A stretch of DNA of 30,556 nucleotides, taken from IMG/VR virus record IMGVR_UViG_3300024500_000078, positions 1 through 30,556 of that record; one strand, given 5' to 3'. A model generated the notes under the pieces. It was not told where the DNA came from, did no database searches, and saw nothing but the letters and a program-made list of their open reading frames with translations. The translations under genes and the position numbers were made by a program. Positions within the stretch are counted from its first letter, which is position 1, and every line of letters starts with the position of its first letter. This DNA is from a virus (lineage: Duplodnaviria > Caudoviricetes). This document shows, piece after piece, positions 4,810 through 20,405 of the stretch.

Positions 4810-4810
4810 C

Positions 4811-7406: not shown

Positions 7407-7471
7407 AATATGACTACAGATAATATCTCATATACTATTGTGTTATATGTAATTAGATATACATGTATTTC

Positions 7472-7773: not shown

Positions 7774-7795
7774 CTTTAATTTATCTTATATATGT

Positions 7796-8083: not shown

Positions 8084-8107
8084 TGTTCCTCTTTCTACTA
8101 GTGCTCC

Positions 8108-8137
8108 ATTCTACCATTATGGGGTGGGGGTTGGCAA
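8108..8137 (-). promoter_or_regulatory. SigA-type promoter
   Basis: TTGCCA-N18-TAGAAT with an extended TG. Confidence 0.6.
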
Positions 8138-8171
8138 CGAAAGGGGAACCAACCCCCACTTCTAGAGGATC

Positions 8172-8321
8172 CTACTTCTTACGTGAAGTAGGGTTTTCAG
8201 CGGTGAAAGTAATGCCCTTCTGAGCTGCCTCAGATAGAGCCTGCTTTGCTGCAGATGAGAAACGACCACGGGCTCCAACTGTAATGCCCTGGGCCTTGAG
8301 ATATTCACGCTTTGTTGCCAT
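8172..8321 (-). CDS. Lsr2-like DNA-binding-domain-only protein (49 aa)
   Basis: MATKREYLKAQGITVGARGRFS..., matching the Lsr2 C-terminal R..A..G..V..RGR AT-hook pattern; GAAAGGA RBS. Confidence 0.75.
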   Translation of the reverse strand: MATKREYLKAQGITVGARGRFSSAAKQALSEAAQKGITFTAENPTSRKK

Positions 8322-8358
8322 TTGTTTTGTCCTTTCTAGACAATTGTTTTTGTGGTAT

Positions 8359-8387
8359 ATTTTACCACTTTTCGGGGTTTTTGTAAA
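8359..8387 (-). promoter_or_regulatory. SigA-type promoter for the Lsr2-like gene
   Basis: TTTACA-N17-TAAAAT with an extended TG. Confidence 0.6.
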
Positions 8388-8422
8388 TACTATCGTAAGG
8401 GGTCCCGCCCGCCCTCACAAAC

Positions 8423-8563
8423 TTAGTCTTGACTGATTAATCCATCATTGATTGCATCAGTAATTAATTTATTTAAAACATTCCTGGCCAGCTCAGGCTG
8501 GCCGTTGTCCAGCCAGGCCGCCGCCAGATCTATAGCGAATGCCGCTTTAGTCTCCTGGTTCAT
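8423..8563 (-). CDS. Small hypothetical protein
   Basis: 46 aa, MNQETKAAFAIDLAAAWLDNGQPE...; overlaps the end of the upstream gene. Confidence 0.5.
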   Translation of the reverse strand: MNQETKAAFAIDLAAAWLDNGQPELARNVLNKLITDAINDGLISQD

Positions 8564-8906
8564 CTAACCAACTGTCGTCATCCAGGGCCACGATGAAGTC
8601 TTTCTCCCTCATCCAATCTCTGATTGTTTCTTCAAGGATTTCTCCGCCATGGTCCATGGTGAGTCCCAGAGAATCTGAATCCTCCCAGAACTGGTCAAAG
8701 ATTTCTTTTAATGTAACACCCTCACGGATTGCTTCATCATAGCCAACTTCAGTATTCTCAAAGATGTCTTTAAGAATATCAAAGCACCAGGTCCATAACA
8801 GGGACGGGAAGACAGATAAATCAGATACAAGTTTATTAATCTCTAGTAACTGATTATATACATCATTCCTACGTGTTGCTTCAGGTAGATCTATTTCTTG
8901 TATCAT
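8547..8906 (-). CDS. Acidic hypothetical protein
   Basis: 119 aa; ATGA coupling. Confidence 0.75.
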   Translation of the reverse strand: MIQEIDLPEATRRNDVYNQLLEINKLVSDLSVFPSLLWTWCFDILKDIFENTEVGYDEAIREGVTLKEIFDQFWEDSDSLGLTMDHGGEILEETIRDWMREKDFIVALDDDSWLDEPGD

Positions 8907-9184
8907 TCTCCAGCCTCCTTAGCCGCTATTGCAAATGAGATGTCATATGTGTCTTTATATATCCATGTGTATGCGTCCAGCATTCCTTCTGCATACTTCC
9001 GCTCCATAGATTCCATTGCGTCTGAGTAATCGTTCTCTTCCTCAATACGCTTGGCTTCTGCATATTCCGCTTCCGCCTCTAACATGCGAAGTTTGAGTTC
9101 GCCATGCATGATATCAATGCCGCTAACTCCAGCGTCAACAAGACGCTGTAGATGTGGCTGTAGTTTGTCCGCCTGTTCTTGCAT
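8903..9184 (-). CDS. Acidic helical hypothetical protein
   Basis: 93 aa; GAGGAG RBS. Confidence 0.75.
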   Translation of the reverse strand: MQEQADKLQPHLQRLVDAGVSGIDIMHGELKLRMLEAEAEYAEAKRIEEENDYSDAMESMERKYAEGMLDAYTWIYKDTYDISFAIAAKEAGE

Positions 9185-9402
9185 TATTTCTCCTCTGTTG
9201 GAATGCCAAGTATATCAGAGCCCACTGACAATAAATGGTGGGTGGCAGTAAGTTGTCCTGATACCCAGTTATACTCTACATCTAAATAAGCATAATCCTT
9301 ACAATTAGGGTCAAGAGCATCCATTTGTTCAGATAGTTTTTCTAAATCTTGTTGTAAACTAATCTGATGAATCTTCATATATTCAATTAATTGATTAGAC
9401 AT
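9184..9402 (-). CDS. Hypothetical protein
   Basis: 72 aa; its 3' end contains a promoter motif. Confidence 0.7.
   Translation of the reverse strand: MSNQLIEYMKIHQISLQQDLEKLSEQMDALDPNCKDYAYLDVEYNWVSGQLTATHHLLSVGSDILGIPTEEK
9209..9230 (-). promoter_or_regulatory. PafBC-type promoter motif 1
   Basis: TGTCAG-TGGGCTCTGA-TATACT. Confidence 0.75.
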
Positions 9403-9560
9403 TATTCAGCCACATACCCCTCTGCTAATAGGCCTTCAAAGAAATCCCAAATAGTTAATAGACCTTGCCTGGTTTCCTTATCGGACGGCGGCAGATAAAA
9501 TTCTGCCCTATTTAAAGTAATACCAAACTCTTGTATCTCCTTATATGTATAACCTAACAT
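9402..9560 (-). CDS. Small hypothetical protein
   Basis: 52 aa, MLGYTYKEIQEFG...GLLAEGYVAE; TAATG-coupled on both sides. Confidence 0.7.
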   Translation of the reverse strand: MLGYTYKEIQEFGITLNRAEFYLPPSDKETRQGLLTIWDFFEGLLAEGYVAE

Positions 9561-9781
9561 TAATCAACCTCAAAATAATATTCATCATCAGGAGTTAAAT
9601 TATAAAACTCATTGTAAGATTTCTTGATGTCATTGGAGGCAAATTCAATGAACTTATGTTCAGCATATTCCTCCCCCTCATCAAGGTTATTATTATTCCA
9701 ATCATCAAATAGTTGTTCTTCAATTTCTACTTGAATAGCCCCTAGAATATGTTCTCCTAGAGTATCTGTAAACATTTCCAT
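9560..9781 (-). CDS. Highly acidic hypothetical protein
   Basis: Start revised to the ATG at 9781, after AACGAAAGGAA. Confidence 0.7.
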   Translation of the reverse strand: MEMFTDTLGEHILGAIQVEIEEQLFDDWNNNNLDEGEEYAEHKFIEFASNDIKKSYNEFYNLTPDDEYYFEVD

Positions 9782-9808
9782 ATTATTCCTTTCGTTAGAC
9801 ATGGCTTA

Positions 9809-9830
9809 ATTATAGTTCATACCACCGACA
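9809..9830 (-). promoter_or_regulatory. PafBC-type promoter motif 2
   Basis: TGTCGG-TGGTATGAAC-TATAAT. Confidence 0.85.
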
Positions 9831-9959
9831 TTTGTCCATATGATGTGGATCACATAAAATGACTAATAGGTTAGTTTGTCTCATATGCTGAAATTCCTGT
9901 GAAATATATTTGACACACGTAAATGATCTATGCTATCCTCAGGTTTTTGCGGGCAGCTC

Positions 9960-10086
9960 TAAAAAAAGAAGTGGGGCCCTAGCAGTCTCTCCCTCTGCTG
10001 GGCCCCTGGTGTTTGGCTGCATCCACACTATGCATATTTAAAGACTTGGGCGAAAGGAACCCTGATAGCCTCACCAAACGTTTGTG
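9960..10086 (-). ncRNA. Candidate structured small RNA with an anti-Shine-Dalgarno loop
   Basis: Extended -10 TGCTATAAT (10092-10100), multi-stem fold, GC-rich terminator with a T-run at about 9960-10007, no convincing ORF. Confidence 0.5.
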
Positions 10087-10112
10087 ATTACATTATAGCA
10101 TATTTTAGTAGA

Positions 10113-10454
10113 CTAAACTGTAACCCCCAAATGATAATTGATAAATTCATCCCATGTGTGACCGTCTACCATTTTATTAACCATGTCAACATCAATTGTG
10201 GTGTCCCACGCTGCAAAGTTGCTTGGCTTATCTACAGCACCAATTCCATATCCAGTCTCATCCAGGACCTCATGCTGAATCATATGAGAAATAATCATAC
10301 GAATGCAATAAGATGTGTCTTCCCACCTTGGACGGGCATGGTTTAATGCTGCTGCTAATTTAATTTCCCATTCATCTTCTCCCCAATGACTGTACAGCCA
10401 TACCGCAGGCTGGTCCTCACCCTCATTGAAGATATAATTAATACGTGCTCCCAT
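10113..10454 (-). CDS. Conserved phage hypothetical protein
   Basis: MGAR...LYSHWG...RWEDTSY; 113 aa. Confidence 0.75.
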   Translation of the reverse strand: MGARINYIFNEGEDQPAVWLYSHWGEDEWEIKLAAALNHARPRWEDTSYCIRMIISHMIQHEVLDETGYGIGAVDKPSNFAAWDTTIDVDMVNKMVDGHTWDEFINYHLGVTV

Positions 10455-10647
10455 TTGTTACTTCCGCCTTTTCTTGTTGTGTGTTTTCAATGGATAAGTC
10501 TACAACTTCATAGGACCATTTGTCAAGGGCCTCTTTGAATTCATTGTAGTGGTGGCCACAGAAAAATAAATCTCCTGCCAAGCCTCTTGCTTGATATACA
10601 GCTTTGGCTGTGACACATTTATCACATCCGATAAATCTGTTACTCAT
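10438..10647 (-). CDS. Small zinc-binding protein
   Basis: CDKC...LFFCGHH motif. Confidence 0.7.
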   Translation of the reverse strand: MSNRFIGCDKCVTAKAVYQARGLAGDLFFCGHHYNEFKEALDKWSYEVVDLSIENTQQEKAEVTNGSTY

Positions 10648-10790
10648 AGATTACCGCCCTCTATCATGTCTGACAATCTATCTAGAATCCAAGAGTCAAT
10701 ATCTGAGATATCAATCTCACGCAGCTTCTCCATGATTTCTTCACGAGCATACTTATACCCGTCATCCCAACCGCTCTTGTAATCTGACAT
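10644..10790 (-). CDS. Small hypothetical protein
   Basis: 48 aa, MSDYKSGWDDGYKYAREE...; AGGAG RBS; ATGA overlap. Confidence 0.7.
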   Translation of the reverse strand: MSDYKSGWDDGYKYAREEIMEKLREIDISDIDSWILDRLSDMIEGGNL

Positions 10791-10791
10791 A

Positions 10792-11004
10792 TTATCTCCT
10801 ATAACCTGTTGGTTCGTATTCTGAGGTATAACTTTCAGTTAAATTATACTTATCACGAATGCGACTTACTTTCTCTATACTACCTGTTCCTATCTCGAAT
10901 GTCAAGGTGTCTTTGATATGCAATGGATCCAATCCAAGCACATCTGCCTCCCAGTAGGCCCTTTGCAGGGCCAACTGGTTTGGCGCAGTTAATTCAAAAT
11001 ACAT
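10792..11004 (-). CDS. Hypothetical protein
   Basis: 70 aa; TAATG coupling. Confidence 0.7.
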   Translation of the reverse strand: MYFELTAPNQLALQRAYWEADVLGLDPLHIKDTLTFEIGTGSIEKVSRIRDKYNLTESYTSEYEPTGYRR

Positions 11005-11543
11005 TACCAGTCCACGTCCGCATCTTCGACATCGAACGATTCAACAATAACGTCGCCGTTATATGCATCTAATGTTAATGTATCTTGGAGGAAGTAGCGG
11101 GCATCGAAATCCTCTACTTCATCTAATGGACAATCATAGCGAACATCAAATGTGATGCTGCCAGTGATTCTGATTTCTTGCTTTGGTTCATGACCAAAGA
11201 TTTCACATAAATCAGAAAGAATTTCTGACTTATCAGTGTTAGGGTTGTACCAACCTTGTGCAGTCATGTTATCAATAACTTGACCGATTTGCTTTTCCTG
11301 TTGTTCAAGACGAGCATTAGTAAAACCACGAAGACGGAACATCTCCATGATATCAGTACGCTTCATGTTATGCACAGTGTGTGTACCGTCAGTGTGTGAT
11401 TCAATTACATCAATAGTTGGATTGACATAGAGCATTCCCTCTAGGTCAACAACCTTGATAGTTTCATATGTTGCTTCGCCGTCAACAATATGTTTTACTG
11501 TGACGAGAGCATTTGGGTTGTATGTGTATGGTGCTGTCTCCAT
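11004..11543 (-). CDS. Acidic hypothetical protein
   Basis: 179 aa; TAATG coupling. Confidence 0.75.
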   Translation of the reverse strand: METAPYTYNPNALVTVKHIVDGEATYETIKVVDLEGMLYVNPTIDVIESHTDGTHTVHNMKRTDIMEMFRLRGFTNARLEQQEKQIGQVIDNMTAQGWYNPNTDKSEILSDLCEIFGHEPKQEIRITGSITFDVRYDCPLDEVEDFDARYFLQDTLTLDAYNGDVIVESFDVEDADVDW

Positions 11544-12316
11544 TAGATTTTCTCCATTCTGTAGTGTGGGACATGTTCAGCGTCTAAGTATACCTTATGG
11601 GTCGGACATTCCTTGATGGCATCAAGGTCTGCTTCACCTAGATAGTTGCAGGCAGAGCATAACTCATTATCACATTCTTCGCAATAGGATAGAGTGTTAT
11701 ATTCGTCACAATCTCTACATCTGTTTTCATAATCCATTTCAGAGATAACTTCTCCACGTAGGAATTCGCATTCTCCGCCCCAACCTGTCTCTTCCTCATA
11801 AGATAAGGTGAATAACAAACTTGGGTATTGTTCAGATAGTTTAGCAAGAGCAGGCATTGGTGGAGACCAAGCAGTATTAAAGTTATAATAAACTACAAGG
11901 TTCTCTCCATTAGGAGTAGGCCCCTCTATATATGTTTCAGGATATTTATCACCGTCTTTAACAGCAACATCCCATTTGGTTCCCCAGTTGACAACATTCC
12001 AGTTATACCAACCTTTGTCTTCTTGGGCTATTTTCATTGTATCTGACCACCACTCAGGGTCGTCTAAAGATTTCTCAGAACGAATAGGTTGTTGAACATA
12101 TTCTTGGTCTGTGATACCTGCTTGACGGTGGTTATAGATATTATAGAATGCAAATACAGGATTTGGATATGTGGTCTGAGAGACTTCCATTTCCTGTGTT
12201 TCCATATTCCATGAATCATGTAGCATGACAAATGGCTTGTTCATTTGACGAACAAGGTCATTTACTAAATCAGGATTACCCTCAATGGTTAATCCGTTGT
12301 AACACCAATTTGGCAT
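11543..12316 (-). CDS. YubB/DUF1281-like ferredoxin-fold protein with a C-terminal Cys cluster
   Basis: MPNWCYN, WYNWNVVNWGTKWD, FNTAWSPP; C-terminal CxxC repeats. Confidence 0.75.
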   Translation of the reverse strand: MPNWCYNGLTIEGNPDLVNDLVRQMNKPFVMLHDSWNMETQEMEVSQTTYPNPVFAFYNIYNHRQAGITDQEYVQQPIRSEKSLDDPEWWSDTMKIAQEDKGWYNWNVVNWGTKWDVAVKDGDKYPETYIEGPTPNGENLVVYYNFNTAWSPPMPALAKLSEQYPSLLFTLSYEEETGWGGECEFLRGEVISEMDYENRCRDCDEYNTLSYCEECDNELCSACNYLGEADLDAIKECPTHKVYLDAEHVPHYRMEKI

Positions 12317-12339
12317 TTTACTTCCTTTCTTTGGGCCCT

Positions 12340-12361
12340 ATTATAGTGGAGCACACTGACA
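12340..12361 (-). promoter_or_regulatory. PafBC-type promoter motif 3
   Basis: TGTCAG-TGTGCTCCAC-TATAAT. Confidence 0.8.
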
Positions 12362-12486
12362 AGAGTCAAGGATTTCCAGTGAATTTTTCTATATTCCCAT
12401 ATGATCTATGTCACGCCCGTAAAAGCTGCGGGACATCCTTAGTATATTGCGGGCGTCTCATTATTTGAAATTGTTATCTCATATTG

Positions 12487-12559
12487 CGATGCGTACGGGA
12501 TTTGAACCCGTGATCTCTACCGTGACAGGGTAGCGCTTTAACCGCTAAGCTAACGCACC
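12487..12559 (-). tRNA. tRNA-Asp(GTC)
   Basis: GGTGCGT/ACGCATC acceptor stem, CTACC-CT-GTC-AC-GGTAG anticodon arm, GGTTCAAATCC T-arm, G discriminator; no CCA. Confidence 0.92.
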
Positions 12560-12560
12560 A

Positions 12561-12594
12561 AATAAAAAGCGGGGGAATTTTTAGTTCCCCCGCT
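12561..12594 (-). terminator. Intrinsic terminator after the DUF932 gene
   Basis: AGCGGGGGAA/TTCCCCCGCT stem followed by TTTTATTT. Confidence 0.75.
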
Positions 12595-12609
12595 AGTGTA
12601 ATCATTTTA

Positions 12610-13614
12610 TTAGAATGATTTTACTAACTTGAGAATTTTATTTTTCTCAGCAGTAAGAACAGGGTCAAAGCCACTTGCGCCCGCCATTAGCGATTCGCTA
12701 TTGCCACGACCAGAACGGAAATAATCAAGGCGTTCAGTAAGCGCATTGAAAGCACCCCATTTTGTTCCCTTGATATTAGCGTTAGTTGGTGAGTTATGAT
12801 AAAGGTCATCAATCAAGATAACTTTATTTTCCCACTTTTTGAGAGCACCCTTAGAATCTTTTTCAGGCTTAGGATAAATTGTCTGAATCAATTTAGAGAA
12901 TTCAGCATTTGTAATTTCAGCCTTGAAAAGTTCCTGCGCTTCTTTCTCGAATTCATCAAAGTATCCAAGAGCAAGCCCAAGAGTTTCACGAGCAACTTGA
13001 ATTCGTCCCTCAACAGATTGTGTGTGACGAATTTTGAATGATTGCTTAGCATTACGCATAGCAAGATTCAAAGTGTTTTGGCATACAACACGAACAGGTG
13101 TAATCGCTGCTTGAACAGCAACAGAGCCGTCGTGAGATGTCCATACGATTAGATAAAGTTTGGTTTGGTCATTAGCACCTTGTGGGTCTAATACCATTGT
13201 GCGAGGAACATCAACGGTTCCAAATACAACTTTACCATTCTTTAGAGAGCCAGCAGATTCCCAACGGCACTCAGGGTTAGCGTCATGAATATTATCTGCG
13301 AAAGCAAATAATTCTTCATTTTGAACAGGCTTGTATCGCTTACCAACGGTAGCAAGAACATCAGTTCCGCCATTGAATGGATTTGTGCGAATAACTAATT
13401 GAGCATTAGAAACATCATTCCATGATTCTGAAATATGGTCAGTTAGTGGAGAGAGGCGAACATTCCAGTTAGCCAATTTTGCTTCTTCAAGCATTGTTTG
13501 AGTAGTCACATCTTCATCTTGTGAGAAGATACGATTTGCGAGATTGTGCCATGCGGGAGTTCCACGCAAAGCAAAGGCAACTTCATTGCCATTTGTTTCA
13601 AGGTTATGAGCCAT
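12610..13614 (-). CDS. DUF932 family phage/plasmid protein (TIGR03299-like)
   Basis: MAH...PAWH, YKPVQN, ESAGSL, SHDGS, TPVRVVCQNTL, IRHT, GTKWGAFNA. Confidence 0.88.
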   Translation of the reverse strand: MAHNLETNGNEVAFALRGTPAWHNLANRIFSQDEDVTTQTMLEEAKLANWNVRLSPLTDHISESWNDVSNAQLVIRTNPFNGGTDVLATVGKRYKPVQNEELFAFADNIHDANPECRWESAGSLKNGKVVFGTVDVPRTMVLDPQGANDQTKLYLIVWTSHDGSVAVQAAITPVRVVCQNTLNLAMRNAKQSFKIRHTQSVEGRIQVARETLGLALGYFDEFEKEAQELFKAEITNAEFSKLIQTIYPKPEKDSKGALKKWENKVILIDDLYHNSPTNANIKGTKWGAFNALTERLDYFRSGRGNSESLMAGASGFDPVLTAEKNKILKLVKSF

Positions 13615-13647
13615 GATTTTTTCCTTTCGATTGTTAGATTGAGCCTA

Positions 13648-13669
13648 AGTATAACAGACCCCACCGACA
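13648..13669 (-). promoter_or_regulatory. PafBC-type promoter motif 4
   Basis: TGTCGG-TGGGGTCTGT-TATACT. Confidence 0.85.
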
Positions 13670-13735
13670 TTTGTCTATAGTTAGTTAGACATTAGGGCAA
13701 AACGGACATGTGATCAATCTCATATTTTTTCAGGG

Positions 13736-13767
13736 TTTTCCACAGGCAGCCGTAACGCTGTGGATAA
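13736..13767. promoter_or_regulatory. Inverted pair of DnaA boxes
   Basis: TTTTCCACA-N14-TGTGGATAA (the second is a perfect TTATCCACA on the minus strand). Confidence 0.6.
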
Positions 13768-13768
13768 C

Positions 13769-13786
13769 CCCGCACATATTTGCGGG
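13769..13786. repeat. CCCGCA-N6-TGCGGG palindrome (repeat family member)
   Basis: Also at 15851-15868, 17347-17363 and 19152-19169; degenerate at 12416-12432 and about 9936-9953. Confidence 0.7.
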
Positions 13787-13853
13787 CAGCTTGATCGGGG
13801 AAGTTGGGGCGGGAATCTAGATGATTACACAGTTCAAACCCGCCCCAAGATTA

Positions 13854-14036
13854 TTATGCTCCGATTTTTACCATAGCCCAACGCAAACCTTTTTCAGTTT
13901 CTAAACCAAGTTTTGTAAGTGTTGGTCTAACTGAAATAATTTCGCTAATTGTGCCAGTAATTCCTGATTTACCAGTTGTAAAGACATCGCCTTTTTTATA
14001 GAAGCGACCCTTCTTAGTATCTAGAATTGGTGACAT
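13854..14036 (-). CDS. Small SH3/KOW-like protein
   Basis: YKKGDVFTTGKSGITGTISEII; paralog of 14611-14787. Confidence 0.7.
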   Translation of the reverse strand: MSPILDTKKGRFYKKGDVFTTGKSGITGTISEIISVRPTLTKLGLETEKGLRWAMVKIGA

Positions 14037-14109
14037 TTTATTTCCTTTCGTTTGTTGGTGTGTTGGTGGGCAGTTTTACCTTAGGTGATACCCAGCACCA
14101 AATCTCTAA

Positions 14110-14529
14110 TTAGAGATAACGAGCAATAGCATTGTAAGTTGAAGTGCTTACAACTTCCTCGTCCGTCATTTTGAGAATACGAATTGCGTTCTCAATTTCC
14201 TCTACCATTTCCTTATACTGCCAATCGTGGTAAGTATCAAAGTCCTTAGTAGGTTCAACAGGTAGTTCAATAGAACCAGCAGGTAAATCAAAATCTACAT
14301 TTACCATACCATTGTATCGGACATTAGCACGGACATTTTCCGCCTTTGCGATTTTAGCAAGAGCAAGTTTAGCAATTTCTTTACTCCATTTTTCTTGAGC
14401 CTTTGAGTATCTTTCCTCATTGACTTTCTGATTAGCCTTATCCTTTTGGATTTGTGCTAACTTAGTTTCAAGAGCCTTGATTACCTTTGTGGTGGCAATC
14501 TTTACATTTATGGCTTTTCCTCTACTCAT
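14110..14529 (-). CDS. Lys-rich hypothetical protein
   Basis: 139 aa; AACGAAAGGAAA RBS. Confidence 0.8.
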   Translation of the reverse strand: MSRGKAINVKIATTKVIKALETKLAQIQKDKANQKVNEERYSKAQEKWSKEIAKLALAKIAKAENVRANVRYNGMVNVDFDLPAGSIELPVEPTKDFDTYHDWQYKEMVEEIENAIRILKMTDEEVVSTSTYNAIARYL

Positions 14530-14565
14530 TTGTTTTTCCTTTCGTTTGTTTGTTTGTGTGAGAGA

Positions 14566-14587
14566 ATTGTAGCAGAGCCCACCGACA
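14566..14587 (-). promoter_or_regulatory. PafBC-type promoter motif 5
   Basis: TGTCGG-TGGGCTCTGC-TACAAT. Confidence 0.85.
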
Positions 14588-14610
14588 TTTCGGTGAGCCC
14601 TGCCATTGAA

Positions 14611-14787
14611 TTAGGCTAGGCTATCAGCAGAGATAGTTGTCCAGCGTGTTTCTTTTGTTGGTAGTTCCAACAATACACGCACCGAGCCAGATGCGTTAGG
14701 AATAATCTCTTTGATTACGCCTGTTTTCTTTGACTTTAGGGTGGTGAATAAATCGCCAACCTTGTAAGTATAACCATTTATGGTCAT
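14611..14787 (-). CDS. Small SH3/KOW-like protein
   Basis: 58 aa, MTINGYTYKVGDLFTTLKSKKTGVIKEII...; GAAAGGA RBS; below the ORF-track cutoff. Confidence 0.75.
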   Translation of the reverse strand: MTINGYTYKVGDLFTTLKSKKTGVIKEIIPNASGSVRVLLELPTKETRWTTISADSLA

Positions 14788-14817
14788 TTTGCTTCCTTTC
14801 TATTAGTAGGTGGGTAG

Positions 14818-14839
14818 ATTATAGCAGGGGCTACCGACA
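14818..14839 (-). promoter_or_regulatory. PafBC-type promoter motif 6
   Basis: TGTCGG-TAGCCCCTGC-TATAAT. Confidence 0.85.
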
Positions 14840-14862
14840 AGTGGCAAGCCCTTGCTAATGAT

Positions 14863-14878
14863 TGTGAGATTTATCACA
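14863..14878. promoter_or_regulatory. CRP/GlxR-type site
   Basis: TGTGA-GATTTA-TCACA. Confidence 0.7.
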
Positions 14879-15137
14879 ACCAAGCCTCTAGGTGGTGAGC
14901 CTCGACAATAGCCGAAGCGGGAGCCGTATTTTTATCCCTCCAAGTAATTGGGGAGGGTAGGTCAATAAGGCGTTCATAGTCCTCATCATAGTAAGCATCA
15001 ATAGCATCAATACAAGGTTGAACCATTGATCGTGGGACGGGTGGGTAATGATTAGCGGATAAGTGAATAGCTATACTATCCTCTAAAGATAAACCTAAGT
15101 CTAGTTCAGCAAGTTCAGTAGCAAAATTACTCCCCAT
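14874..15137 (-). CDS. Conserved phage hypothetical protein
   Basis: HLSANHYPPVP...IVEAHHLEAWL; 87 aa. Confidence 0.8.
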   Translation of the reverse strand: MGSNFATELAELDLGLSLEDSIAIHLSANHYPPVPRSMVQPCIDAIDAYYDEDYERLIDLPSPITWRDKNTAPASAIVEAHHLEAWL

Positions 15138-15402
15138 TTTCTAATACCTCATCTCTCATTGTTTCCATTTCATCAATAGTAGCCATAAGTTCTTTTACCT
15201 GAGTTTCAGTTAGCAAAATTTTAGTAGCCTTATCTATTGCGAGAGAAGCAAGCATACAAGAATAAGTATAAATAGATTTAGCGAATTGTTCGTCATCTAA
15301 TTCTTTAGCGTGATAGCAGAAAGCCTGAGCAAAACCCATAATTTCCTCATCAAAAATACTTTCTTCAGTTGCCTGAATAAGAGCGGTTGCGGTTGATAGC
15401 AT
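15127..15402 (-). CDS. Hypothetical protein
   Basis: Start revised to the ATG at 15402, after AACGAAAGGAAA. Confidence 0.75.
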   Translation of the reverse strand: MLSTATALIQATEESIFDEEIMGFAQAFCYHAKELDDEQFAKSIYTYSCMLASLAIDKATKILLTETQVKELMATIDEMETMRDEVLENGE

Positions 15403-15430
15403 TTTTTTCCTTTCGTTGTGTGGTGGGTAG

Positions 15431-15452
15431 ATTATACACCTACCCACCGACA
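15431..15452 (-). promoter_or_regulatory. PafBC-type promoter motif 7
   Basis: TGTCGG-TGGGTAGGTG-TATAAT. Confidence 0.85.
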
Positions 15453-15454
15453 TT

Positions 15455-15706
15455 TTAGGCTAGGGCTAGGTAAGCCTGACCGTAGCCTTCATTTACACGG
15501 TCTAACTCATCCTGAATTTCAGAGCGGGATAAGAGAGATACTTTACCAATTAACTCACGAATTGCAGATTCGTTCATTTGAGTAAATACCTGTGCAGGCA
15601 CTCGTTGAATTTGAGCATACATTGAACCTTCAGGATTAATTAAAGATACAAAGTCTACACCGTCTACTGAAAACGGGTAGGATTTCCAATTTGAGAAGTT
15701 GGACAT
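15455..15706 (-). CDS. Hypothetical protein
   Basis: 83 aa; AACGAAAGGAAA RBS. Confidence 0.8.
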   Translation of the reverse strand: MSNFSNWKSYPFSVDGVDFVSLINPEGSMYAQIQRVPAQVFTQMNESAIRELIGKVSLLSRSEIQDELDRVNEGYGQAYLALA

Positions 15707-15736
15707 TATTTTTTCCTTTCGTTTGTTGATAGTGGA

Positions 15737-15758
15737 ATTATAGCGTAAGCCTGCGACA
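15737..15758 (-). promoter_or_regulatory. PafBC-type promoter motif 8
   Basis: TGTCGC-AGGCTTACGC-TATAAT. Confidence 0.75.
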
Positions 15759-15791
15759 TTATCTAATCCATTATCGGCGTGTCGCCGTGTT

Positions 15792-15807
15792 TGTGAGATT
15801 TCTCACA
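15792..15807. promoter_or_regulatory. CRP/GlxR-type site
   Basis: TGTGA-GATTTC-TCACA. Confidence 0.7.
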
Positions 15808-15817
15808 ATTCCCGTGA

Positions 15818-15849
15818 ATATCCACAGGTCCACTTAAATCTGTGGATAA
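15818..15849. promoter_or_regulatory. Inverted pair of DnaA boxes
   Basis: ATATCCACA-N14-TGTGGATAA; same spacing as 13736-13767. Confidence 0.6.
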
Positions 15850-15964
15850 CCCCGCAATATATTGCGGGCATTTTACAGTTTTGTCAACATATAAATTATT
15901 AATATAAACGGTGACAGTAACAATGCAATAAATAAAATAGCTGCAACAGATCCAAGGAGCTCTA

Positions 15965-16684
15965 TCATTTTTTACTCGCAGAAAATCTAATATCAGCCTT
16001 ATTAAATACACACAATCCACATGACACACATGCGCTGCCATTAGTTGAAATCAATGGAATTTGTTTATTATTTTCAGGACACTTAGCACCGACCTTGCCA
16101 GTTAATTCTTTCATAACGCTTTCGGTGACAGCAAACGTTTTGCCTAAGTATGCAAGACGGACATTATGCAAATCACGCAATGCGCCTGCAATTTCTTTAT
16201 TCTCATCGTCGGTAGAAAAATAAAGAGACAGATTAGGAATGTCAATTAGAATTGGTACAGCAGAATAAACACGTGTATAAACCCAAAATTGAACATCCGC
16301 ATGACGATTAATTACAGTCTTCCACGCATATGCGTAGGTATCTGAAAAGAAATCTCCGTCCCAATGGATACGGAATAATTTTTCTGCAGACTTTTTATCA
16401 CAATCTTTTTTAAAATCAACAATCATTTCATCCAGAAGAGAAACCATAGTTTCAACATCTGCATTCTTAAGTAATTCCCAATTGTGTAAGAGGACCGCTC
16501 TTACTCCCTTGTATACTCTTTCAAGTTTTCCTGCATAGCAAACGCTTTCACAAACACTAGTGGCACCAGGACACGAGAAATCTTTTCCAGCAGGTAATCC
16601 GAAGGTGTTGGCAATTGTTGGGGTTTTTCCATTTTTTGAGACGGCATTAGCGACCTTTCTATCGTTAGAACGTTTTAATTTCAT
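15965..16684 (-). CDS. GP88-family protein (mycobacteriophage gene product 88-like; Cys-rich)
   Basis: FGLPAG..SCPGATSVCESVCYA, FRIHWDGDF, FWVYTR, CP...CVSCGLC; start revised to 16684 after AACGAAAGG. Confidence 0.8.
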   Translation of the reverse strand: MKLKRSNDRKVANAVSKNGKTPTIANTFGLPAGKDFSCPGATSVCESVCYAGKLERVYKGVRAVLLHNWELLKNADVETMVSLLDEMIVDFKKDCDKKSAEKLFRIHWDGDFFSDTYAYAWKTVINRHADVQFWVYTRVYSAVPILIDIPNLSLYFSTDDENKEIAGALRDLHNVRLAYLGKTFAVTESVMKELTGKVGAKCPENNKQIPLISTNGSACVSCGLCVFNKADIRFSASKK

Positions 16685-16708
16685 GAGAGACCTTTCGTTA
16701 GAGGGCCC

Positions 16709-16730
16709 ATTATACACGGGCCCACCGACA
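16709..16730 (-). promoter_or_regulatory. PafBC-type promoter motif 9
   Basis: TGTCGG-TGGGCCCGTG-TATAAT. Confidence 0.85.
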
Positions 16731-16731
16731 T

Positions 16732-17229
16732 TTACCAAGAGGAATTGTAATAAAAGGACAATTTGTCGAAATCGGACAATTTGAACACCCGATCAAGTTT
16801 CTTGATAGTGTCCTTGATATCTTGCCAATACCATTCATCAATATCGGTATTGCCAAAGAAAAATCCACCTTGTGGCGGCAGCAAACTAGGGTCCTTAGCG
16901 AATAAGGCTTGACGGCAGGTTTCCCTTAATTCCTTTAATTTATCGTGTGATACATAGTATTCGCCACAATTATCTTCACCATTTTGTACATTATCTACAA
17001 ACCATTTGTGTATTTGATTAGACTTACGCCAATAAGCACAAGTAACTTCAACATTTACGCCATAAATATCTGTAGCAACATCTGACATTTGAGAGGTAGA
17101 AACAATATCTTTCCATAGAGGATTAATTGCTTCAGGACTATCATAAGACAAGTCTTGATTTTCTTGTAGGACCTGCCAATTTACTTTTTCCACATATTTC
17201 TTAGCGTGGAGATACATATCTAAACCCAT
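16732..17229 (-). CDS. Conserved phage hypothetical protein
   Basis: MGLDMYL...YWRKSNQIHKWF...LLPPQGGFFFG...YNSSW family pattern. Confidence 0.85.
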   Translation of the reverse strand: MGLDMYLHAKKYVEKVNWQVLQENQDLSYDSPEAINPLWKDIVSTSQMSDVATDIYGVNVEVTCAYWRKSNQIHKWFVDNVQNGEDNCGEYYVSHDKLKELRETCRQALFAKDPSLLPPQGGFFFGNTDIDEWYWQDIKDTIKKLDRVFKLSDFDKLSFYYNSSW

Positions 17230-17259
17230 AGTTATTTCCTTTCGTTGGGATACGCAGCA

Positions 17260-17281
17260 ATTATAGCGTAAAAGGCTGACA
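17260..17281 (-). promoter_or_regulatory. PafBC-type promoter motif 10
   Basis: TGTCAG-CCTTTTACGC-TATAAT. Confidence 0.8.
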
Positions 17282-17308
17282 TTTTCAGCGACACGCCGTC
17301 AAAATTCC

Positions 17309-17324
17309 TGTGATAAATCTCACA
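17309..17324. promoter_or_regulatory. CRP/GlxR-type site
   Basis: TGTGA-TAAATC-TCACA. Confidence 0.7.
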
Positions 17325-17380
17325 TCTACTTAACGACACGCCCGACCCCGCAGCTACTGCGGGCTTAGTTGAAATTTCAA

Positions 17381-17527
17381 CTAATCCCAATTCATAGTTT
17401 TACCAACAGCGGTTTTTTTATGTTTTTGTTTTCGCTTGTAAATTTTTTTACTAGGAATTGGAGTTGCGGCATTTGATCTCCGCAATTCCAAAACTTTTTT
17501 TATTCTTTCTTTATTTGGTAATTTCAT
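17381..17527 (-). CDS. Small very basic protein
   Basis: 48 aa, MKLPNKERIKKVLELRRSNAATPIPSKKIYKRKQKHKK...; AAAGGA RBS. Confidence 0.7.
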   Translation of the reverse strand: MKLPNKERIKKVLELRRSNAATPIPSKKIYKRKQKHKKTAVGKTMNWD

Positions 17528-17545
17528 TTTCTGTCCTTTTTTTAT

Positions 17546-17734
17546 TTAGTTACTGAAATTTGGAATTTTGTAATTTGAAGCCGAATAAAATTTAGTGGCG
17601 TCAAATCTTTCGTTATCTCTTGCGAACATCTCCGCAAAATCTACAACCATTTTAGAAAAAACGGCTGGGTGAGTTTTATCTGAAACATACCGCAGAATTT
17701 CTGCGGTAGCAACATAGTCTTTTCTTGTCATCAT
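17546..17734 (-). CDS. Small conserved phage protein
   Basis: MTRKDYVATAEIL...DNERFDATKF. Confidence 0.75.
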   Translation of the reverse strand: MMTRKDYVATAEILRYVSDKTHPAVFSKMVVDFAEMFARDNERFDATKFYSASNYKIPNFSN

Positions 17735-17943
17735 TATTTTTCAACCACCCTTCTACCTTCACGATAGAAAATTTTTGTGTAGCATTTTCCGCTAGGTGTA
17801 AATAAATTTACAGTTGAGTATTCGTTAGCAAATCCCCAATCAACATACTTAGCAAATTCTTTGTGTGCTTGTAGTTCATCTGAATATTGAAAAACATAAT
17901 CAGGGGTTTTGCTTTCATCATAGGTTACAGTTATTTTATACAT
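17734..17943 (-). CDS. Hypothetical protein
   Basis: 69 aa; GGAGG RBS. Confidence 0.75.
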   Translation of the reverse strand: MYKITVTYDESKTPDYVFQYSDELQAHKEFAKYVDWGFANEYSTVNLFTPSGKCYTKIFYREGRRVVEK

Positions 17944-18140
17944 TAGTTAGCCTCCGCAGTTTCAAATAGAGTTCCTGTATCAACTACGCTTTTATCATAG
18001 TCAAGAATTATTTTGTATGGATTACATTCGCAATACTCAAAATCATAGTCGCCGTCAGGTGATACCCAACCCGATACGCCTTGTCCATAGCACTCATCAC
18101 AATTTAGAATTGTGTCAATTAGTTCTGTTGTTGTTTTCAT
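17943..18140 (-). CDS. Small zinc-binding protein
   Basis: CDECYGQG...CEC. Confidence 0.75.
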   Translation of the reverse strand: MKTTTELIDTILNCDECYGQGVSGWVSPDGDYDFEYCECNPYKIILDYDKSVVDTGTLFETAEAN

Positions 18141-18142
18141 TT

Positions 18143-18265
18143 TTAGTTTTCCTTTCGTTCTGTTGTTGGAATTGTAGCAGTTAGCACCGACAAGGCTTCA
18201 GCCTTGCTTGCTTCACGCTGAGAGATAACATAAGACTTGAAGTCTTCGAGAGAATTGAATTTCAT
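18143..18265 (-). CDS. Small peptide (40 aa)
   Basis: MKFNSLEDFKSYVISQREASKAEALSVLTATIPTTERKEN; AACGAAAGGAAA RBS; the 3' half also encodes the next promoter and RBS. Confidence 0.65.
   Translation of the reverse strand: MKFNSLEDFKSYVISQREASKAEALSVLTATIPTTERKEN
18171..18192 (-). promoter_or_regulatory. PafBC-type promoter motif 11
   Basis: TGTCGG-TGCTAACTGC-TACAAT. Confidence 0.8.
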
Positions 18266-18292
18266 TAGTTTTCCTTTCGTTTAGTTGATTAG

Positions 18293-18314
18293 ATTATAGC
18301 GGAAGCCACCGACA
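18293..18314 (-). promoter_or_regulatory. PafBC-type promoter motif 12
   Basis: TGTCGG-TGGCTTCCGC-TATAAT. Confidence 0.85.
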
Positions 18315-18315
18315 T

Positions 18316-18531
18316 TTAGTAGTCGGTAAGCCTCACAGCGACAGTAGCCCATTGGTCTTGAATTGACCCTGTTGGGCGGTAGCGAATAGCAAAGTGTTCC
18401 CAACCCTCTGGCGGATAAGTATCCTCACGCTTTTCAGCAAAGTTTATAATTCCACCATTGAAACGGCGGGATAATGAAGTAGGCGCATAGTATTGGTCTA
18501 CTAGTAAATCTACAATTGAATAACTTCTCAT
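18316..18531 (-). CDS. Small beta-rich hypothetical protein
   Basis: 71 aa; similar to 19773-19970. Confidence 0.75.
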   Translation of the reverse strand: MRSYSIVDLLVDQYYAPTSLSRRFNGGIINFAEKREDTYPPEGWEHFAIRYRPTGSIQDQWATVAVRLTDY

Positions 18532-18625
18532 TAGTTTTCCTTTCTTTAGGTTGGCAATTTTACCAAAATTTTACGGGCTTTACAAATCCAAATCGGATTT
18601 TCTCAAATTTTGAGACGCTTAGCCT

Positions 18626-18641
18626 TGTGAGAAATCTCACA
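18626..18641. promoter_or_regulatory. CRP/GlxR-type site
   Basis: TGTGA-GAAATC-TCACA, upstream of a TTGTAA-N17-TAAAAT promoter (about 18557-18585, minus strand). Confidence 0.7.
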
Positions 18642-18759
18642 AAGCTCCCTCTTGAAATAAGCCAATTTCAAGGTTTAGCAATTCTTCAGGCGTAGCCTCG
18701 CTGAGATCAACCCAGCCAGCACCTTGTTCATCTAATCTAAAAATTTCAATGTAACCCAT
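18637..18759 (-). CDS. Small acidic peptide (40 aa)
   Basis: MGYIEIFRLDEQGAGWVDLSEATPEELLNLEIGLFQEGAL; GAAAGGA RBS. Confidence 0.7.
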   Translation of the reverse strand: MGYIEIFRLDEQGAGWVDLSEATPEELLNLEIGLFQEGAL

Positions 18760-18777
18760 TATTAGTTATCCTTTCTA

Positions 18778-18984
18778 TTAGTATCCAATAATTTCTTCAC
18801 CATAGTATTCTATGGCTTCAGGTAATCTCATCATACCTTTGTATTCTTTACATCTTGGGCAAAAACTATTCCACCCATCTGTCATTATTGAGCAAAATAC
18901 GCAAATTTTATCCATAGCGCATAAGCCTTTTTCTTCGATAATGTCGAAAGCATTTACTTTATTATTTTTATTTAGTGTAGTCAT
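18778..18984 (-). CDS. Small zinc-ribbon protein
   Basis: CVFC...CPRC; start revised to 18984 after GAAAGGTGG. Confidence 0.75.
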   Translation of the reverse strand: MTTLNKNNKVNAFDIIEEKGLCAMDKICVFCSIMTDGWNSFCPRCKEYKGMMRLPEAIEYYGEEIIGY

Positions 18985-19021
18985 TTTAGACCACCTTTCT
19001 TTTTTACTATCTAATAACTGA

Positions 19022-19043
19022 AGTATAACAGGGGGGTCTGACA
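19022..19043 (-). promoter_or_regulatory. PafBC-type promoter motif 13
   Basis: TGTCAG-ACCCCCCTGT-TATACT. Confidence 0.8.
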
Positions 19044-19082
19044 TTTACTGACCAGTAATGCCACAAATCGGACATTTTGTTT

Positions 19083-19098
19083 TGTGATAAATCTCACA
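19083..19098. promoter_or_regulatory. CRP/GlxR-type site
   Basis: TGTGA-TAAATC-TCACA. Confidence 0.7.
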
Positions 19099-19214
19099 TT
19101 TTTCGGGGTTTTCCGTGAATCTACTTAAATCGGACATAACGGTACAAATCGCCCGCAAAAGACTGCGGGCAGCTGCCGATTTTGTCAAATCGACACGCCG
19201 ATCCGTTTTGTGTT

Positions 19215-19367
19215 TTAGAACACACGCTTTCTGCGCTTGTAAATCTTGTAAGCAATAACGCCCACTACTACTAACGCCATACCTAGGGGAGAGAGGTAGA
19301 AATCAAATTGGGCGGTTTCAAAAGCAAGCCCATCGCTAGTGATATCTATTACTAAGTATCTATCCAT
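19215..19367 (-). CDS. Small single-pass membrane protein
   Basis: 50 aa, ...LSPLGMALVVVGVIAYKIYKRRKRVF (TM segment plus basic tail); GGAG RBS. Confidence 0.7.
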   Translation of the reverse strand: MDRYLVIDITSDGLAFETAQFDFYLSPLGMALVVVGVIAYKIYKRRKRVF

Positions 19368-19373
19368 TTTTAT

Positions 19374-19496
19374 TTACTCCATTTCCAAATCAAAATCAAA
19401 ATCATCATCAAAATCATTATTGAATTCGTGTTCATCGCCCCACACCTTTGGTGTGATAGGCTCTAAATCTGCCTGTATTGTATCCCATTTAGTCAT
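19374..19496 (-). CDS. Small highly acidic peptide (40 aa)
   Basis: MTKWDTIQAD...EFNNDFDDDFDFDLEME; TAATG-coupled. Confidence 0.65.
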   Translation of the reverse strand: MTKWDTIQADLEPITPKVWGDEHEFNNDFDDDFDFDLEME

Positions 19497-19621
19497 TAGT
19501 TATTTTCCTCTCTTACGCAATCGCAAGCGTCAATGGTGTAGTCATTGTTATCGCCATAGAATAGATAGCCTACTCCGTGGCAAGCCTTACAATCAAATTT
19601 TAGTGTTTGATACATTTTCAT
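19496..19621 (-). CDS. Small zinc-binding peptide (41 aa)
   Basis: CKACHGVG...CDC; AACGAAAGGA RBS; paralog of 17943-18140. Confidence 0.7.
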   Translation of the reverse strand: MKMYQTLKFDCKACHGVGYLFYGDNNDYTIDACDCVREENN

Positions 19622-19649
19622 TTAGTTTATCCTTTCGTTAGTTGAGGTC

Positions 19650-19691
19650 TTATTTGCTAGGCTCACCCTTTCGGTTTATTTGCTAGGCTCA
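19650..19691 (-). repeat. 16-bp direct repeat in a 5' leader
   Basis: TGAGCCTAGCAAATAA at 19650-19665 and 19676-19691. Confidence 0.8.
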
Positions 19692-19715
19692 TACCTCTTA
19701 TTTAGTTATAGTGGA

Positions 19716-19737
19716 ATACTATCCGATAGCACCGACA
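19716..19737 (-). promoter_or_regulatory. PafBC-type promoter motif 14
   Basis: TGTCGG-TGCTATCGGA-TAGTAT. Confidence 0.8.
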
Positions 19738-19765
19738 TTTTCAAGCCGACACGCTAGGGTGTAGG

Positions 19766-19781
19766 TGTGAGGTTAGTCACA
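19766..19781. promoter_or_regulatory. CRP/GlxR-type site
   Basis: TGTGA-GGTTAG-TCACA. Confidence 0.65.
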
Positions 19782-19970
19782 CGCTACGGCTACGCTGCGA
19801 TAGGTGTAGCCACCTGTATTCTTGCGTATCTCTACTAGATACGCCTCAGCGTTTTCATACCATACGGCATGAGGGTGTTTCTCAGCCGATACGATTTCGC
19901 CCTCTACGGAACGGCTACGATAAGGCTTTCCTACTAGTAGGGACTGGACATTGTATAAGTTAGCGGACAT
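19773..19970 (-). CDS. Small beta-rich hypothetical protein
   Basis: 65 aa; GAGAGGT RBS. Confidence 0.75.
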   Translation of the reverse strand: MSANLYNVQSLLVGKPYRSRSVEGEIVSAEKHPHAVWYENAEAYLVEIRKNTGGYTYRSVAVACD

Positions 19971-19998
19971 TTGCTACCTCTTTCTTTCTAATACGGGA

Positions 19999-20020
19999 AT
20001 AATAACACAAGGGAGCGACA
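19999..20020 (-). promoter_or_regulatory. PafBC-type promoter motif 15
   Basis: TGTCGC-TCCCTTGTGT-TATTAT. Confidence 0.7.
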
Positions 20021-20048
20021 TTATCAAGACGACACGCCGCATAGGGTG

Positions 20049-20064
20049 TGTGATTTACTTCACA
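20049..20064. promoter_or_regulatory. CRP/GlxR-type site
   Basis: TGTGA-TTTACT-TCACA. Confidence 0.65.
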
Positions 20065-20174
20065 CCCTTAGCATGAGCAAGTTGCTCAGCATAGTCGGGG
20101 TCTGATACTGAATCAGCACCAAACTCTAGATAAATATCTAGATAGATTTCGTCATAGTAATCATTGTAGTCCAT
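20055..20174 (-). CDS. Small Asp/Tyr-rich peptide (39 aa)
   Basis: MDYNDYYDEIYLDIYLEFGADSVSDPDYAEQLAHAKGVK; GAAAGG RBS; first gene of the minus block. Confidence 0.7.
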   Translation of the reverse strand: MDYNDYYDEIYLDIYLEFGADSVSDPDYAEQLAHAKGVK

Positions 20175-20209
20175 AGTTAGACCAACCTTTCTTTATCTTG
20201 ATACCTAGT

Positions 20210-20231
20210 ATCCTACCATAGGGGTCTGACA
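20210..20231 (-). promoter_or_regulatory. PafBC-type promoter motif 16
   Basis: TGTCAG-ACCCCTATGG-TAGGAT. Confidence 0.75.
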
Positions 20232-20269
20232 TTTTGGGGTGTTTTTCGGGCGTGTCGCAAAACTATTTT

Positions 20270-20285
20270 TGTGAATTGCATCACA
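20270..20285. promoter_or_regulatory. CRP/GlxR-type site
   Basis: TGTGA-ATTGCA-TCACA. Confidence 0.7.
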
Positions 20286-20369
20286 TGGGCGCACTATCCG
20301 TTTTGTCCGATTTGTATAAAAACTCGTATCATACAAATTAAAATTATATTAACATTTTCAAAAAACGAA

Positions 20370-20398
20370 TTGACCTGCTCAACTGAAAATGCTATTAT
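20370..20398 (+). promoter_or_regulatory. SigA-type promoter, probably giving a leaderless mRNA
   Basis: TTGACC-N17-TATTAT, with an ATG 7 nt downstream (20406). Confidence 0.6.
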
Positions 20399-20405
20399 GT
20401 CCTAT

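Follow-up and report, generated by a model that had tools for sequence, protein, structure and literature searches.

Sensors of single-stranded DNA (ssDNA) that carry WYL domains regulate DNA repair and anti-phage defence. The mycobacterial sensor PafBC, when bound to ssDNA, is described as inserting between domain 4 of the housekeeping sigma factor SigA and the DNA and reading GTC at -26 (PMC8635444, PMC11804915). R46 and R50 of PafB are reported to read GTC and PafC to contact SigA domain 4, and the chromatin immunoprecipitation consensus of the promoters, which are described as lacking a -35 element, is given as tGTCgg(N10)tA(N3)T (PMC8635444). ssDNA activates PafBC in vitro, and the M. smegmatis protein needs it (PMC11804915). 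The present analysis concerns a 30,556-nucleotide stretch of a virus of the Caudoviricetes (IMG/VR record IMGVR_UViG_3300024500_000078, positions 1 to 30,556; hereafter the window), a linear record of 30.6 kb with 37% GC that is about 27% complete, in which promoter sites of this PafBC (RecA-NDp) type are arrayed along a block of small genes. The sites share with the described PafBC promoters the 22-nt layout, the GTC at -27 to -25 and the SigA-type -10 hexamer (PMC8635444, PMC11804915, PMC8223512). They differ in occurring as 14-17 copies in 11 kb on one strand, ahead of genes mostly of unknown function, and in having -10 hexamers of consensus strength, a -35 box at about a third of the sites and phased CRP-type boxes at many. 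We put at roughly two in three the probability that host PafBC reads 17 co-oriented sites here, likely boosting rather than strictly switching genes that are likely early.

Several described phage systems resemble parts of this arrangement. The Bacillus tectivirus GIL01 likewise ties phage promoters to a host damage regulator, LexA (PMC6182141); as that source describes it, LexA is a repressor that keeps lysogeny and is freed by damage, whereas the phage studied here, a relative of the lytic BE phages, would rely on an activator that ssDNA turns on and that acts at many arrayed promoters. In T4, an upstream element read with MotA/AsiA likewise replaces -35 recognition by the housekeeping sigma factor (PMC8635444), but T4 encodes these factors itself, whereas no such factor was found in the phages analysed here and the one that matches is encoded by the host. 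The PeSL cassettes of T4-like phages likewise place repeated promoters between small variable genes and may drive their shuffling (PMC2839356, PMC4122927); they are sigma-70 promoter/stem-loop units and are not known to be linked to a damage activator. In the Streptomyces cluster BE phages Jay2Jay and Tomas (Stanwilliamsviridae), a homologous block with DUF932 and Lsr2-like genes has one promoter per small gene in the same orientation. The literature searched on PafBC or RecA-NDp together with phages, a search that left subscription papers and supplements outside, yielded no description of a phage PafBC regulon, and no BE phage transcriptome turned up. The promoter class is already known; its use as a phage early-gene array did not turn up in these searches, the nearest precedent being the repression of GIL01 promoters by host LexA (PMC6182141).

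The first-pass annotation of the window had listed 16 minus-strand 22-mers of the form TGTCR-N11-TANNNT, with starts from 9209 to 20210, and all of them were found where it had placed them; its count of 14 in the stricter form TGTCRG-N10-TANNNT was also reproduced. A 17th site absent from that list, TGTCCG..TATACT at 11587-11608, lies ahead of the open reading frame (ORF) starting at 11543. The sites are given below, with -35 boxes scored against TTGACA, TGn denoting an extended -10 and CRP-type boxes (TGTGA-N6-TCACA) located by their centre relative to the estimated start, the -10 being counted from -12.

20210..20231, minus strand: PafBC-type site; TGn, no -35; CRP-type box at -74.5; sense GACACGCC starts 25 nt before TGTC.
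19999..20020, minus strand: PafBC-type site (TGTCGC); 5/6 -35 at N17, TGn; CRP-type box at -64.5.
19716..19737, minus strand: PafBC-type site; 5/6 -35 at N17; CRP-type box at -64.5.
19022..19043, minus strand: PafBC-type site; TGn, no -35; CRP-type box at -75.5.
18293..18314, minus strand: PafBC-type site; neither -35 nor TGn.
18171..18192, minus strand: PafBC-type site; TGn.
17260..17281, minus strand: PafBC-type site; 4/6 -35; CRP-type box at -63.5.
16709..16730, minus strand: PafBC-type site of the GP88-family gene; 4/6 -35.
15737..15758, minus strand: PafBC-type site (TGTCGC); 4/6 -35; CRP-type box at -69.5; sense GACACGCC 25 nt before TGTC.
15431..15452, minus strand: PafBC-type site; neither -35 nor TGn.
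14818..14839, minus strand: PafBC-type site; 5/6 -35 at N18, TGn; CRP-type box at -59.5.
14566..14587, minus strand: PafBC-type site; TGn.
13648..13669, minus strand: PafBC-type site of the DUF932 gene; 5/6 -35 at N18, TGn; one-mismatch CRP-type box at -75.5.
12340..12361, minus strand: PafBC-type site of the YubB/ferredoxin-like gene; 5/6 -35 at N18.
11587..11608, minus strand: PafBC-type site, the 17th (TGTCCG-N10-TATACT); neither -35 nor TGn.
9809..9830, minus strand: PafBC-type site; 5/6 -35 at N18; one-mismatch CRP-type box at -44.5.
9209..9230, minus strand: PafBC-type site; TGn, no -35.

As had been noted, the sites stand shortly upstream of a ribosome-binding site (RBS) and ATG, which follow the -10 by 23-37 nt in 15 of the 16; for the site at 19716 the ATG is at +94 by the pattern used. 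The description of the sites as having no obvious -35 holds for some sites and fails for others: six of the 16 have a 5/6 match to TTGACA at a spacer of 17-18 (the sites ending at 20020, 19737, 14839, 13669, 12361 and 9830), and three more have 4/6. When all 17 were considered, TGn was present in eight, the -35 match was 3/6 or less in eight, and only three had neither -35 nor TGn. The flanks were found to be free of TGTCRG, as claimed; one TGTCAT-N10-TATAAT with a TTGACT -35 lies outside the block at 24512-24533. The latter belongs to a strong -35/TGn/-10 site on the minus strand (24512-24541, TGTCAT at -28), which lies in an AT-rich stretch, antisense inside the glycosyltransferase gene, and faces the lysozyme-like gene.

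The enrichment of the motif was measured on the minus strand of 7401-20300 against 500 dinucleotide shuffles. TGTCR-N11-TANNNT occurred 16 times (shuffle mean 0.41, maximum 2), TGTCRG-N10 14 times (0.07, maximum 2) and TGTC-N12 18 times (0.81, maximum 4), and only the 12-nt gap between TGTC and the -10 was enriched, the other spacers from 6 to 21 giving 0-6 matches each. The same element was recovered by a motif-blind test, in which strong -10 boxes followed by RBS and ATG were collected in the window and three relatives without choosing them by TGTC: TGTC stood at -28 to -25 in 38 of 44 such promoters inside the block and in none of 42 outside. In this set, TGTC was conserved at 0.89-0.93 per position and the spacer bases varied freely.

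The array was also found in other phages. A seed scan of 14 of the 64 IMG/VR parts gave 156 viral loci, and about 550 stretches were estimated to hold the strict seed pattern. With the seed matches themselves excluded, spacer 12 accounted for 344 sites in these loci versus 14-40 for other sense spacers and 26-53 for antisense ones. Among the 489 distinct sites, which are related by descent, a -35 match of at least 5/6 was present in 80 and of at least 4/6 in 161, TGn in 250, and neither -35 nor TGn in 151. All 16 long relatives (90-116 kb), which had been picked through a seed match, carried 5-27 strict sites versus 0-3 in the backwards control. In three of them (G001-G003, each taken in pieces of 20 kb; for G003 the first 100,000 of its 100,390 bases were covered), the RBS-linked sites, the perfect CRP-type boxes (4, 7 and 7) and all copies of GACACGCC were confined to one block of 11-13 kb, which also holds DUF932 and GP88. 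The identity of DUF932 among the array-bearing phages ranged from 53 to 88%. No cultured phage with the array was found among 14 cultured actinophage genomes, which had 0-4 strict sites, like the controls (0-5). The homologous block of Jay2Jay has 17 TAGACT/TAGAGT promoters, each of them preceded at N17/18 by a -35 of the TTG or TAGACA type; at their -26 position TGTC, placed at -28, occurs in four and AGTC in one, never as TGTCRG, and unlike the window none has a CRP-type box. Tomas has one TGTC. Thus, the promoter array is common to the BE phages and the -26 element is a speciality of the freshwater lineage. The five Jay2Jay promoters with GTC at -26 plus a -35 (7137, 7527, 8426, 8874 and 9898, minus strand) lie in its terminal repeat and possibly represent partial PafBC input in a tractable system. 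Twelve copies of CCGGACA were also seen upstream of the promoters in the Jay2Jay block.

The assignment of the motif to the RecA-NDp/PafBC class was supported, as its sequence and spacing equal the published consensus (14 strict and 16-17 loose sites), and an actinobacterial host is very likely. WhiB, which is used as an actinophage marker (PMC10202952), is encoded by four of five long relatives, and the closest cultured relatives are the Streptomyces BE phages. Because of WhiB, the BE kinship and the habitats of the sequencing runs, the host is taken to be an actinobacterium, probably of the low-GC freshwater type. The block was present in 20 sequencing runs, of which 19 were recorded as RNA and many may come from one campaign; the runs were freshwater or riverine where named. 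The RNA-run material consists of contigs (four examined) in which DNA may be present, and is a sign of habitat and presence only, strand, starts and levels not being readable from it; the contigs covered the block as fully as its flanks (29-30 of 30 bins). Some of them (window 13389-20185) contain joints at which genes are skipped, as from 18987 to 20185 and from 15403 to 18293, and promoter/RBS repeats mark the ends of several; these joints may represent related strains without those genes, as in shuffling of the PeSL type, or misjoins at repeats.

Of 401 Actinomycetes genomes, 372 had a match to the PafC helix-turn-helix (HTH) domain (363 of 392 without nine flagged unpublished ones, all with a match). 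From this sample 29 genomes of 1.0-1.5 Mb were chosen as candidate hosts; their size and a GC content of 47-52% at most loci fit Ca. Nanopelagicales. recA was recovered from 26, and all 26 recA promoters carried the motif upstream, beside a LexA-type box; one common host form differed from a phage promoter of G002 at one of the first 16 bases. The proposed check for pafB and pafC in hosts was run on candidate hosts: pafB-pafC stood ahead of tatC in five of five genomes, and R46/R50 and R211/R214 were conserved in their proteins in comparison with 7P5X. When 20 strict sites were fetched from two candidate hosts (G274 and G304), 18 had a downstream ORF, and 9 of these 18 ORFs started 6-7 nt after the -10, as expected of leaderless mRNAs; this supports transcription starts at about that distance for the host sites only. 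Behind motif sites in the hosts lie carD, DUF6504 and LysM genes that have SOS boxes, and genes for a DEDD exonuclease, a type II methyltransferase and an HSP90-like ATPase. The motif therefore marks genuine promoters in candidate hosts, though not only of repair genes. Many of the host sites were also seen to cluster in an island (G274:C1:411-433 kb, 7/13; G127:C1:462-510 kb, 9/13; G304:C1:422-457 kb, 6/13), where most are leaderless promoters, each serving one accessory gene (methyltransferase, HSP90-like ATPase, CAAX proteases and unknowns), and this island looks like an array of promoter-gene cassettes.

A second element, overlooked by the first-pass annotation, accompanies the promoters. 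Eight perfect CRP-type boxes lie in the block versus 0.06 expected, and none elsewhere in the window:

20270..20285, no strand assigned: perfect CRP-type box TGTGA-N6-TCACA, one of the eight.
14863..14878, no strand assigned: perfect CRP-type box, the leftmost of the eight.
Starts 15792, 17309, 18626, 19083, 19766 and 20049, no strand assigned: the six remaining perfect CRP-type boxes.
15776, 17290, 17335, 19192, 20031 and 20249..20256 (the 20249 copy on the minus strand): six copies of the GACACGCC element, which contains the WhiA core GACAC.

Seven of the eight boxes are centred between -59.5 and -75.5 from the estimated start, two of these seven (-59.5 and -69.5) off the main helical phase. 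Among the relatives, 232 of 489 promoters have, no more than 130 nt away, a CRP-type box that is perfect or has a single mismatch, and the box centres peak at -54.5, -64.5, -74.5 and -84.5/-85.5. This helical phasing survived dereplication (n = 69-210, Rayleigh R 0.64-0.68 at 10.5 bp, p at the 2e-4 floor versus uniform positions). In a separate scan for the box together with the promoter, covering 9 of the 64 IMG/VR parts (about 970 stretches estimated) and allowing box-to-TGTC gaps of 24-30, only gaps of 27, 28 and 29 were found (18, 110 and 9 of 137), representing 11, 28 and 6 clusters of intervening sequence. Crp was present in five of five candidate hosts (E 7e-77 to the CRP of Mycobacterium tuberculosis), and the consensus of that CRP fits the boxes; class I positions are given as -61.5, -71.5 and -81.5, and M. 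tuberculosis whiB1 has its box at -58.5 (PMC2844151). As at class I CRP promoters, the phage boxes stand at steps of about 10 bp upstream, but their peaks are about 3 bp off and they are paired with a -26 element. The offset may reflect an altered DNA path with PafBC, the start estimate or another binder. No CRP-type box was seen in the 22 host recA promoters examined.

The GACACGCC element matched six times versus 0.15 expected in the block. At the viral sites GACAC peaks 25 nt before TGTC (35 of 489), and GTGTC at -15 (20) and -56 (14); in 19 of 22 host promoters GACAC, as CGACAC, lies 13-17 nt before the TGTC of recA (L267-L285), and GACAC comes back in the phage block at fixed distances. 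WhiA, whose motif is described as short and variable in spacing (PMC3781837, PMC10243135), was found in three of three hosts and is a candidate, though unproven, binder of GACACGCC/GACAC.

In the mechanism we propose, the host SigA holoenzyme would start about 6-7 nt after each -10, and the near-consensus -10, TGn or a -35 would allow basal transcription. The contact of PafB at GTC would raise output when ssDNA is present, and host Crp on the phased TGTGA-N6-TCACA boxes would give a second, class I-like activation. The ssDNA would be supplied either when the incoming linear genome is processed or when the host comes under UV or replication stress. The first pass had made the host damage alarm the switch of the early genes, which is not supported as worded, the sites being neither uniformly -35-less nor weak at the -10. 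Because of the six 5/6 -35 boxes, the eight extended -10 elements and the near-consensus -10 hexamers, a booster is likelier than an on/off switch; in our judgement a strict switch is rather unlikely, and the phage's own DNA ends as the trigger are a tentative idea only a little better placed. More doubtful than either, taken as a whole, is a fuller scenario in which a freshwater actinophage family rewired an ancestral ordinary early array into an AND-like PafBC and Crp regulon. ssDNA of the incoming DNA would then activate PafBC and fire the takeover genes, surplus sites would drain PafBC from host repair and defence genes, and the 3-bp CRP shift would mark an undescribed Crp-PafBC co-activation complex.

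Several observations weigh against the PafBC reading. In the motif-blind set a 5/6 -35 was commoner inside the block (17/44) than outside (5/42). The phage -10 is near consensus (TATAAT in 220/489), whereas that of host recA is weak, and the 22 host recA promoters score 0-3/6 for a -35, unlike many phage sites. The CRP peaks lie about 3 bp upstream of the textbook -61.5/-71.5/-81.5. The homologous block of the BE phages has ordinary promoters and no strict site, so that the gene block in principle needs no PafBC. Strict motif counts in the host genomes (9-16) are not above the backwards control (6-16), many of the genes behind host sites fall outside repair (CAAX proteases, a trypsin-like protein, unknowns), and two of the hits may well be due to chance. 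The hosts are candidates only: when window 4600-20400 was compared with 151 genomes from the candidate order, the matches were to tRNAs (76-86%) apart from a single short phage-like contig in G469, and neither is diagnostic. A small, divergent phage activator could also escape domain searches.

The rival account that fares best holds that these are ordinary strong SigA promoters in which TGTCRG is a passenger from a host promoter, spread with a promoter-RBS cassette through recombination, like the PeSLs of T4-like phages, or that PafBC is always active in unstressed, streamlined hosts. The near-consensus -10 hexamers and the frequencies of TGn and of -35 boxes of at least 4/6 among the 489 sites would fit it, as would the plain -35/-10 arrays from which the BE relatives run the homologous block, the contig joints that skip genes and several of which end at promoter/RBS repeats, and the host motif sites ahead of non-repair island genes. 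A passenger should decay, however, and TGTC has been kept while the spacer varies across phages as divergent as their DUF932 proteins; the 151 sites with neither -35 nor TGn also speak against it, and so does the ssDNA requirement of M. smegmatis PafBC (PMC11804915). We regard this account as improbable.

It is still less probable that a phage-encoded non-WYL activator, a PafB mimic acting like T4 MotA/AsiA, reads the -26 element and puts an early or middle regulon under phage control. Most block ORFs are without a family, the relatives encode WhiB, a SigA binder, and the window covers only about 27% of its genome, all of which count in its favour. As many as 17 phage records were searched, and completeness was 90% or more in 12 of these. 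WYL was found in 0 of 16 relatives, which gives no support to the phage WYL activator that the first pass had offered as its alternative; sigma70_r2 was likewise found in 0 of 16 related records, a PafB protein in 0 of 17 (the host control was found), Crp HTH in 0 of 5 and WhiA HTH in 0 of 2. Furthermore, the phage motif parallels the recA promoter of the hosts in its bases as well as its spacing, a match for which a private activator would have no need, and if the block were transcribed first, a phage protein would presumably not yet be present.

Equally improbable is that the array mainly soaks up PafBC-RNA polymerase, and Crp, so as to blunt the host damage or defence response, with downstream expression secondary. 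The 11 kb hold 14 strict sites, a number that would double were the block a terminal repeat, compared with 9-16 per candidate host chromosome, where sites stand ahead of recA, SOS genes, the type II methyltransferase and the HSP90-like ATPase, and a WYL activator is reported to drive defence genes in Moraxellaceae (PMC12392091). Against this, the sites all lie on one strand and each points at an RBS-ATG, and the CRP boxes are helically phased, as transcription needs and a decoy does not; titration could still be a side effect. Chance or a spacing artefact was rejected by the shuffles, the spacer specificity in viral loci and the motif-blind test, and TGTC as the reverse-strand -35 of divergent promoters by antisense -10 boxes that show no peak at spacers 12-23 (4-16 of 487).

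The genes of the block and its neighbourhood were compared with families in Pfam, PHROG and NCBIfam, in which most block proteins had no family name:

7796..20285, minus strand: small-gene block with about 40 co-oriented ORFs and the promoter array; its homologue in Streptomyces BE phages is their terminal-repeat region.
15965..16684, minus strand: GP88-family protein (family match).
12610..13614, minus strand: DUF932/TIGR03299 protein, 51% identity to gp2-5 of BE phages.
12486..12559, minus strand: tRNA-Asp(gtc) within the block (tRNA search).
11543..12316, minus strand: DUF1281_C ferredoxin-like (YubB-like) protein (family match).
8172..8321, minus strand: Lsr2-like DNA-binding protein with an ordinary -35/-10 site ahead (TTTACA-N17-TAAAAT).

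The window also encodes a class II ribonucleotide reductase (RNR), a single-stranded DNA-binding protein (SSB), a glycosyltransferase, a lysozyme-like protein, three tRNAs and tail-type genes. Its nearest cultured phages are those of Streptomyces cluster BE (DUF932 51%, RNR 67%), and its gene order of small-gene block, transglycosylase, glycosyltransferase and RNR is that of Jay2Jay. BE phages have long terminal repeats. DUF932 occurs twice per BE record, close to the genome end, which fits a terminal repeat. The block is termed likely early because it is homologous to this terminal-repeat block.

Further features were recorded alongside. The region 374-7133, with 4736-4883, holds genes for a tryptophan halogenase-family protein, a cobalamin adenosyltransferase, an AdoMet decarboxylase, SSB, tRNA-Gly and tRNA-Thr; the cobalamin adenosyltransferase fits the B12-dependent RNR at 25020-26951. 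The phage PduO-like gene was tried as a clue to the host and set aside as not diagnostic, as its matches in the part of the collection scanned were mostly to Alphaproteobacteria at 41-49%. Four CCCGC...GCGGG inverted repeats lie between transcription units (13769, 15851, 17347 and 19152), and ATCGGACA words are repeated at 14316, 16771, 19067, 19129 and 20311.

A test of the claim is already within reach through the in vitro system published for M. smegmatis PafBC, and the hundreds of natural promoter variants, with or without a -35, TGn or a CRP box, form a panel for studying sigma adaptation combined with a second activator. If the reading is true, the alarm of the host becomes the start or boost signal of the phage, an arrangement that in temperate phages has until now been described for repressors, LexA among them. 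As this phage family is common and likely infects dominant freshwater bacteria, UV or other stress on DNA could modulate infection in lakes and rivers.

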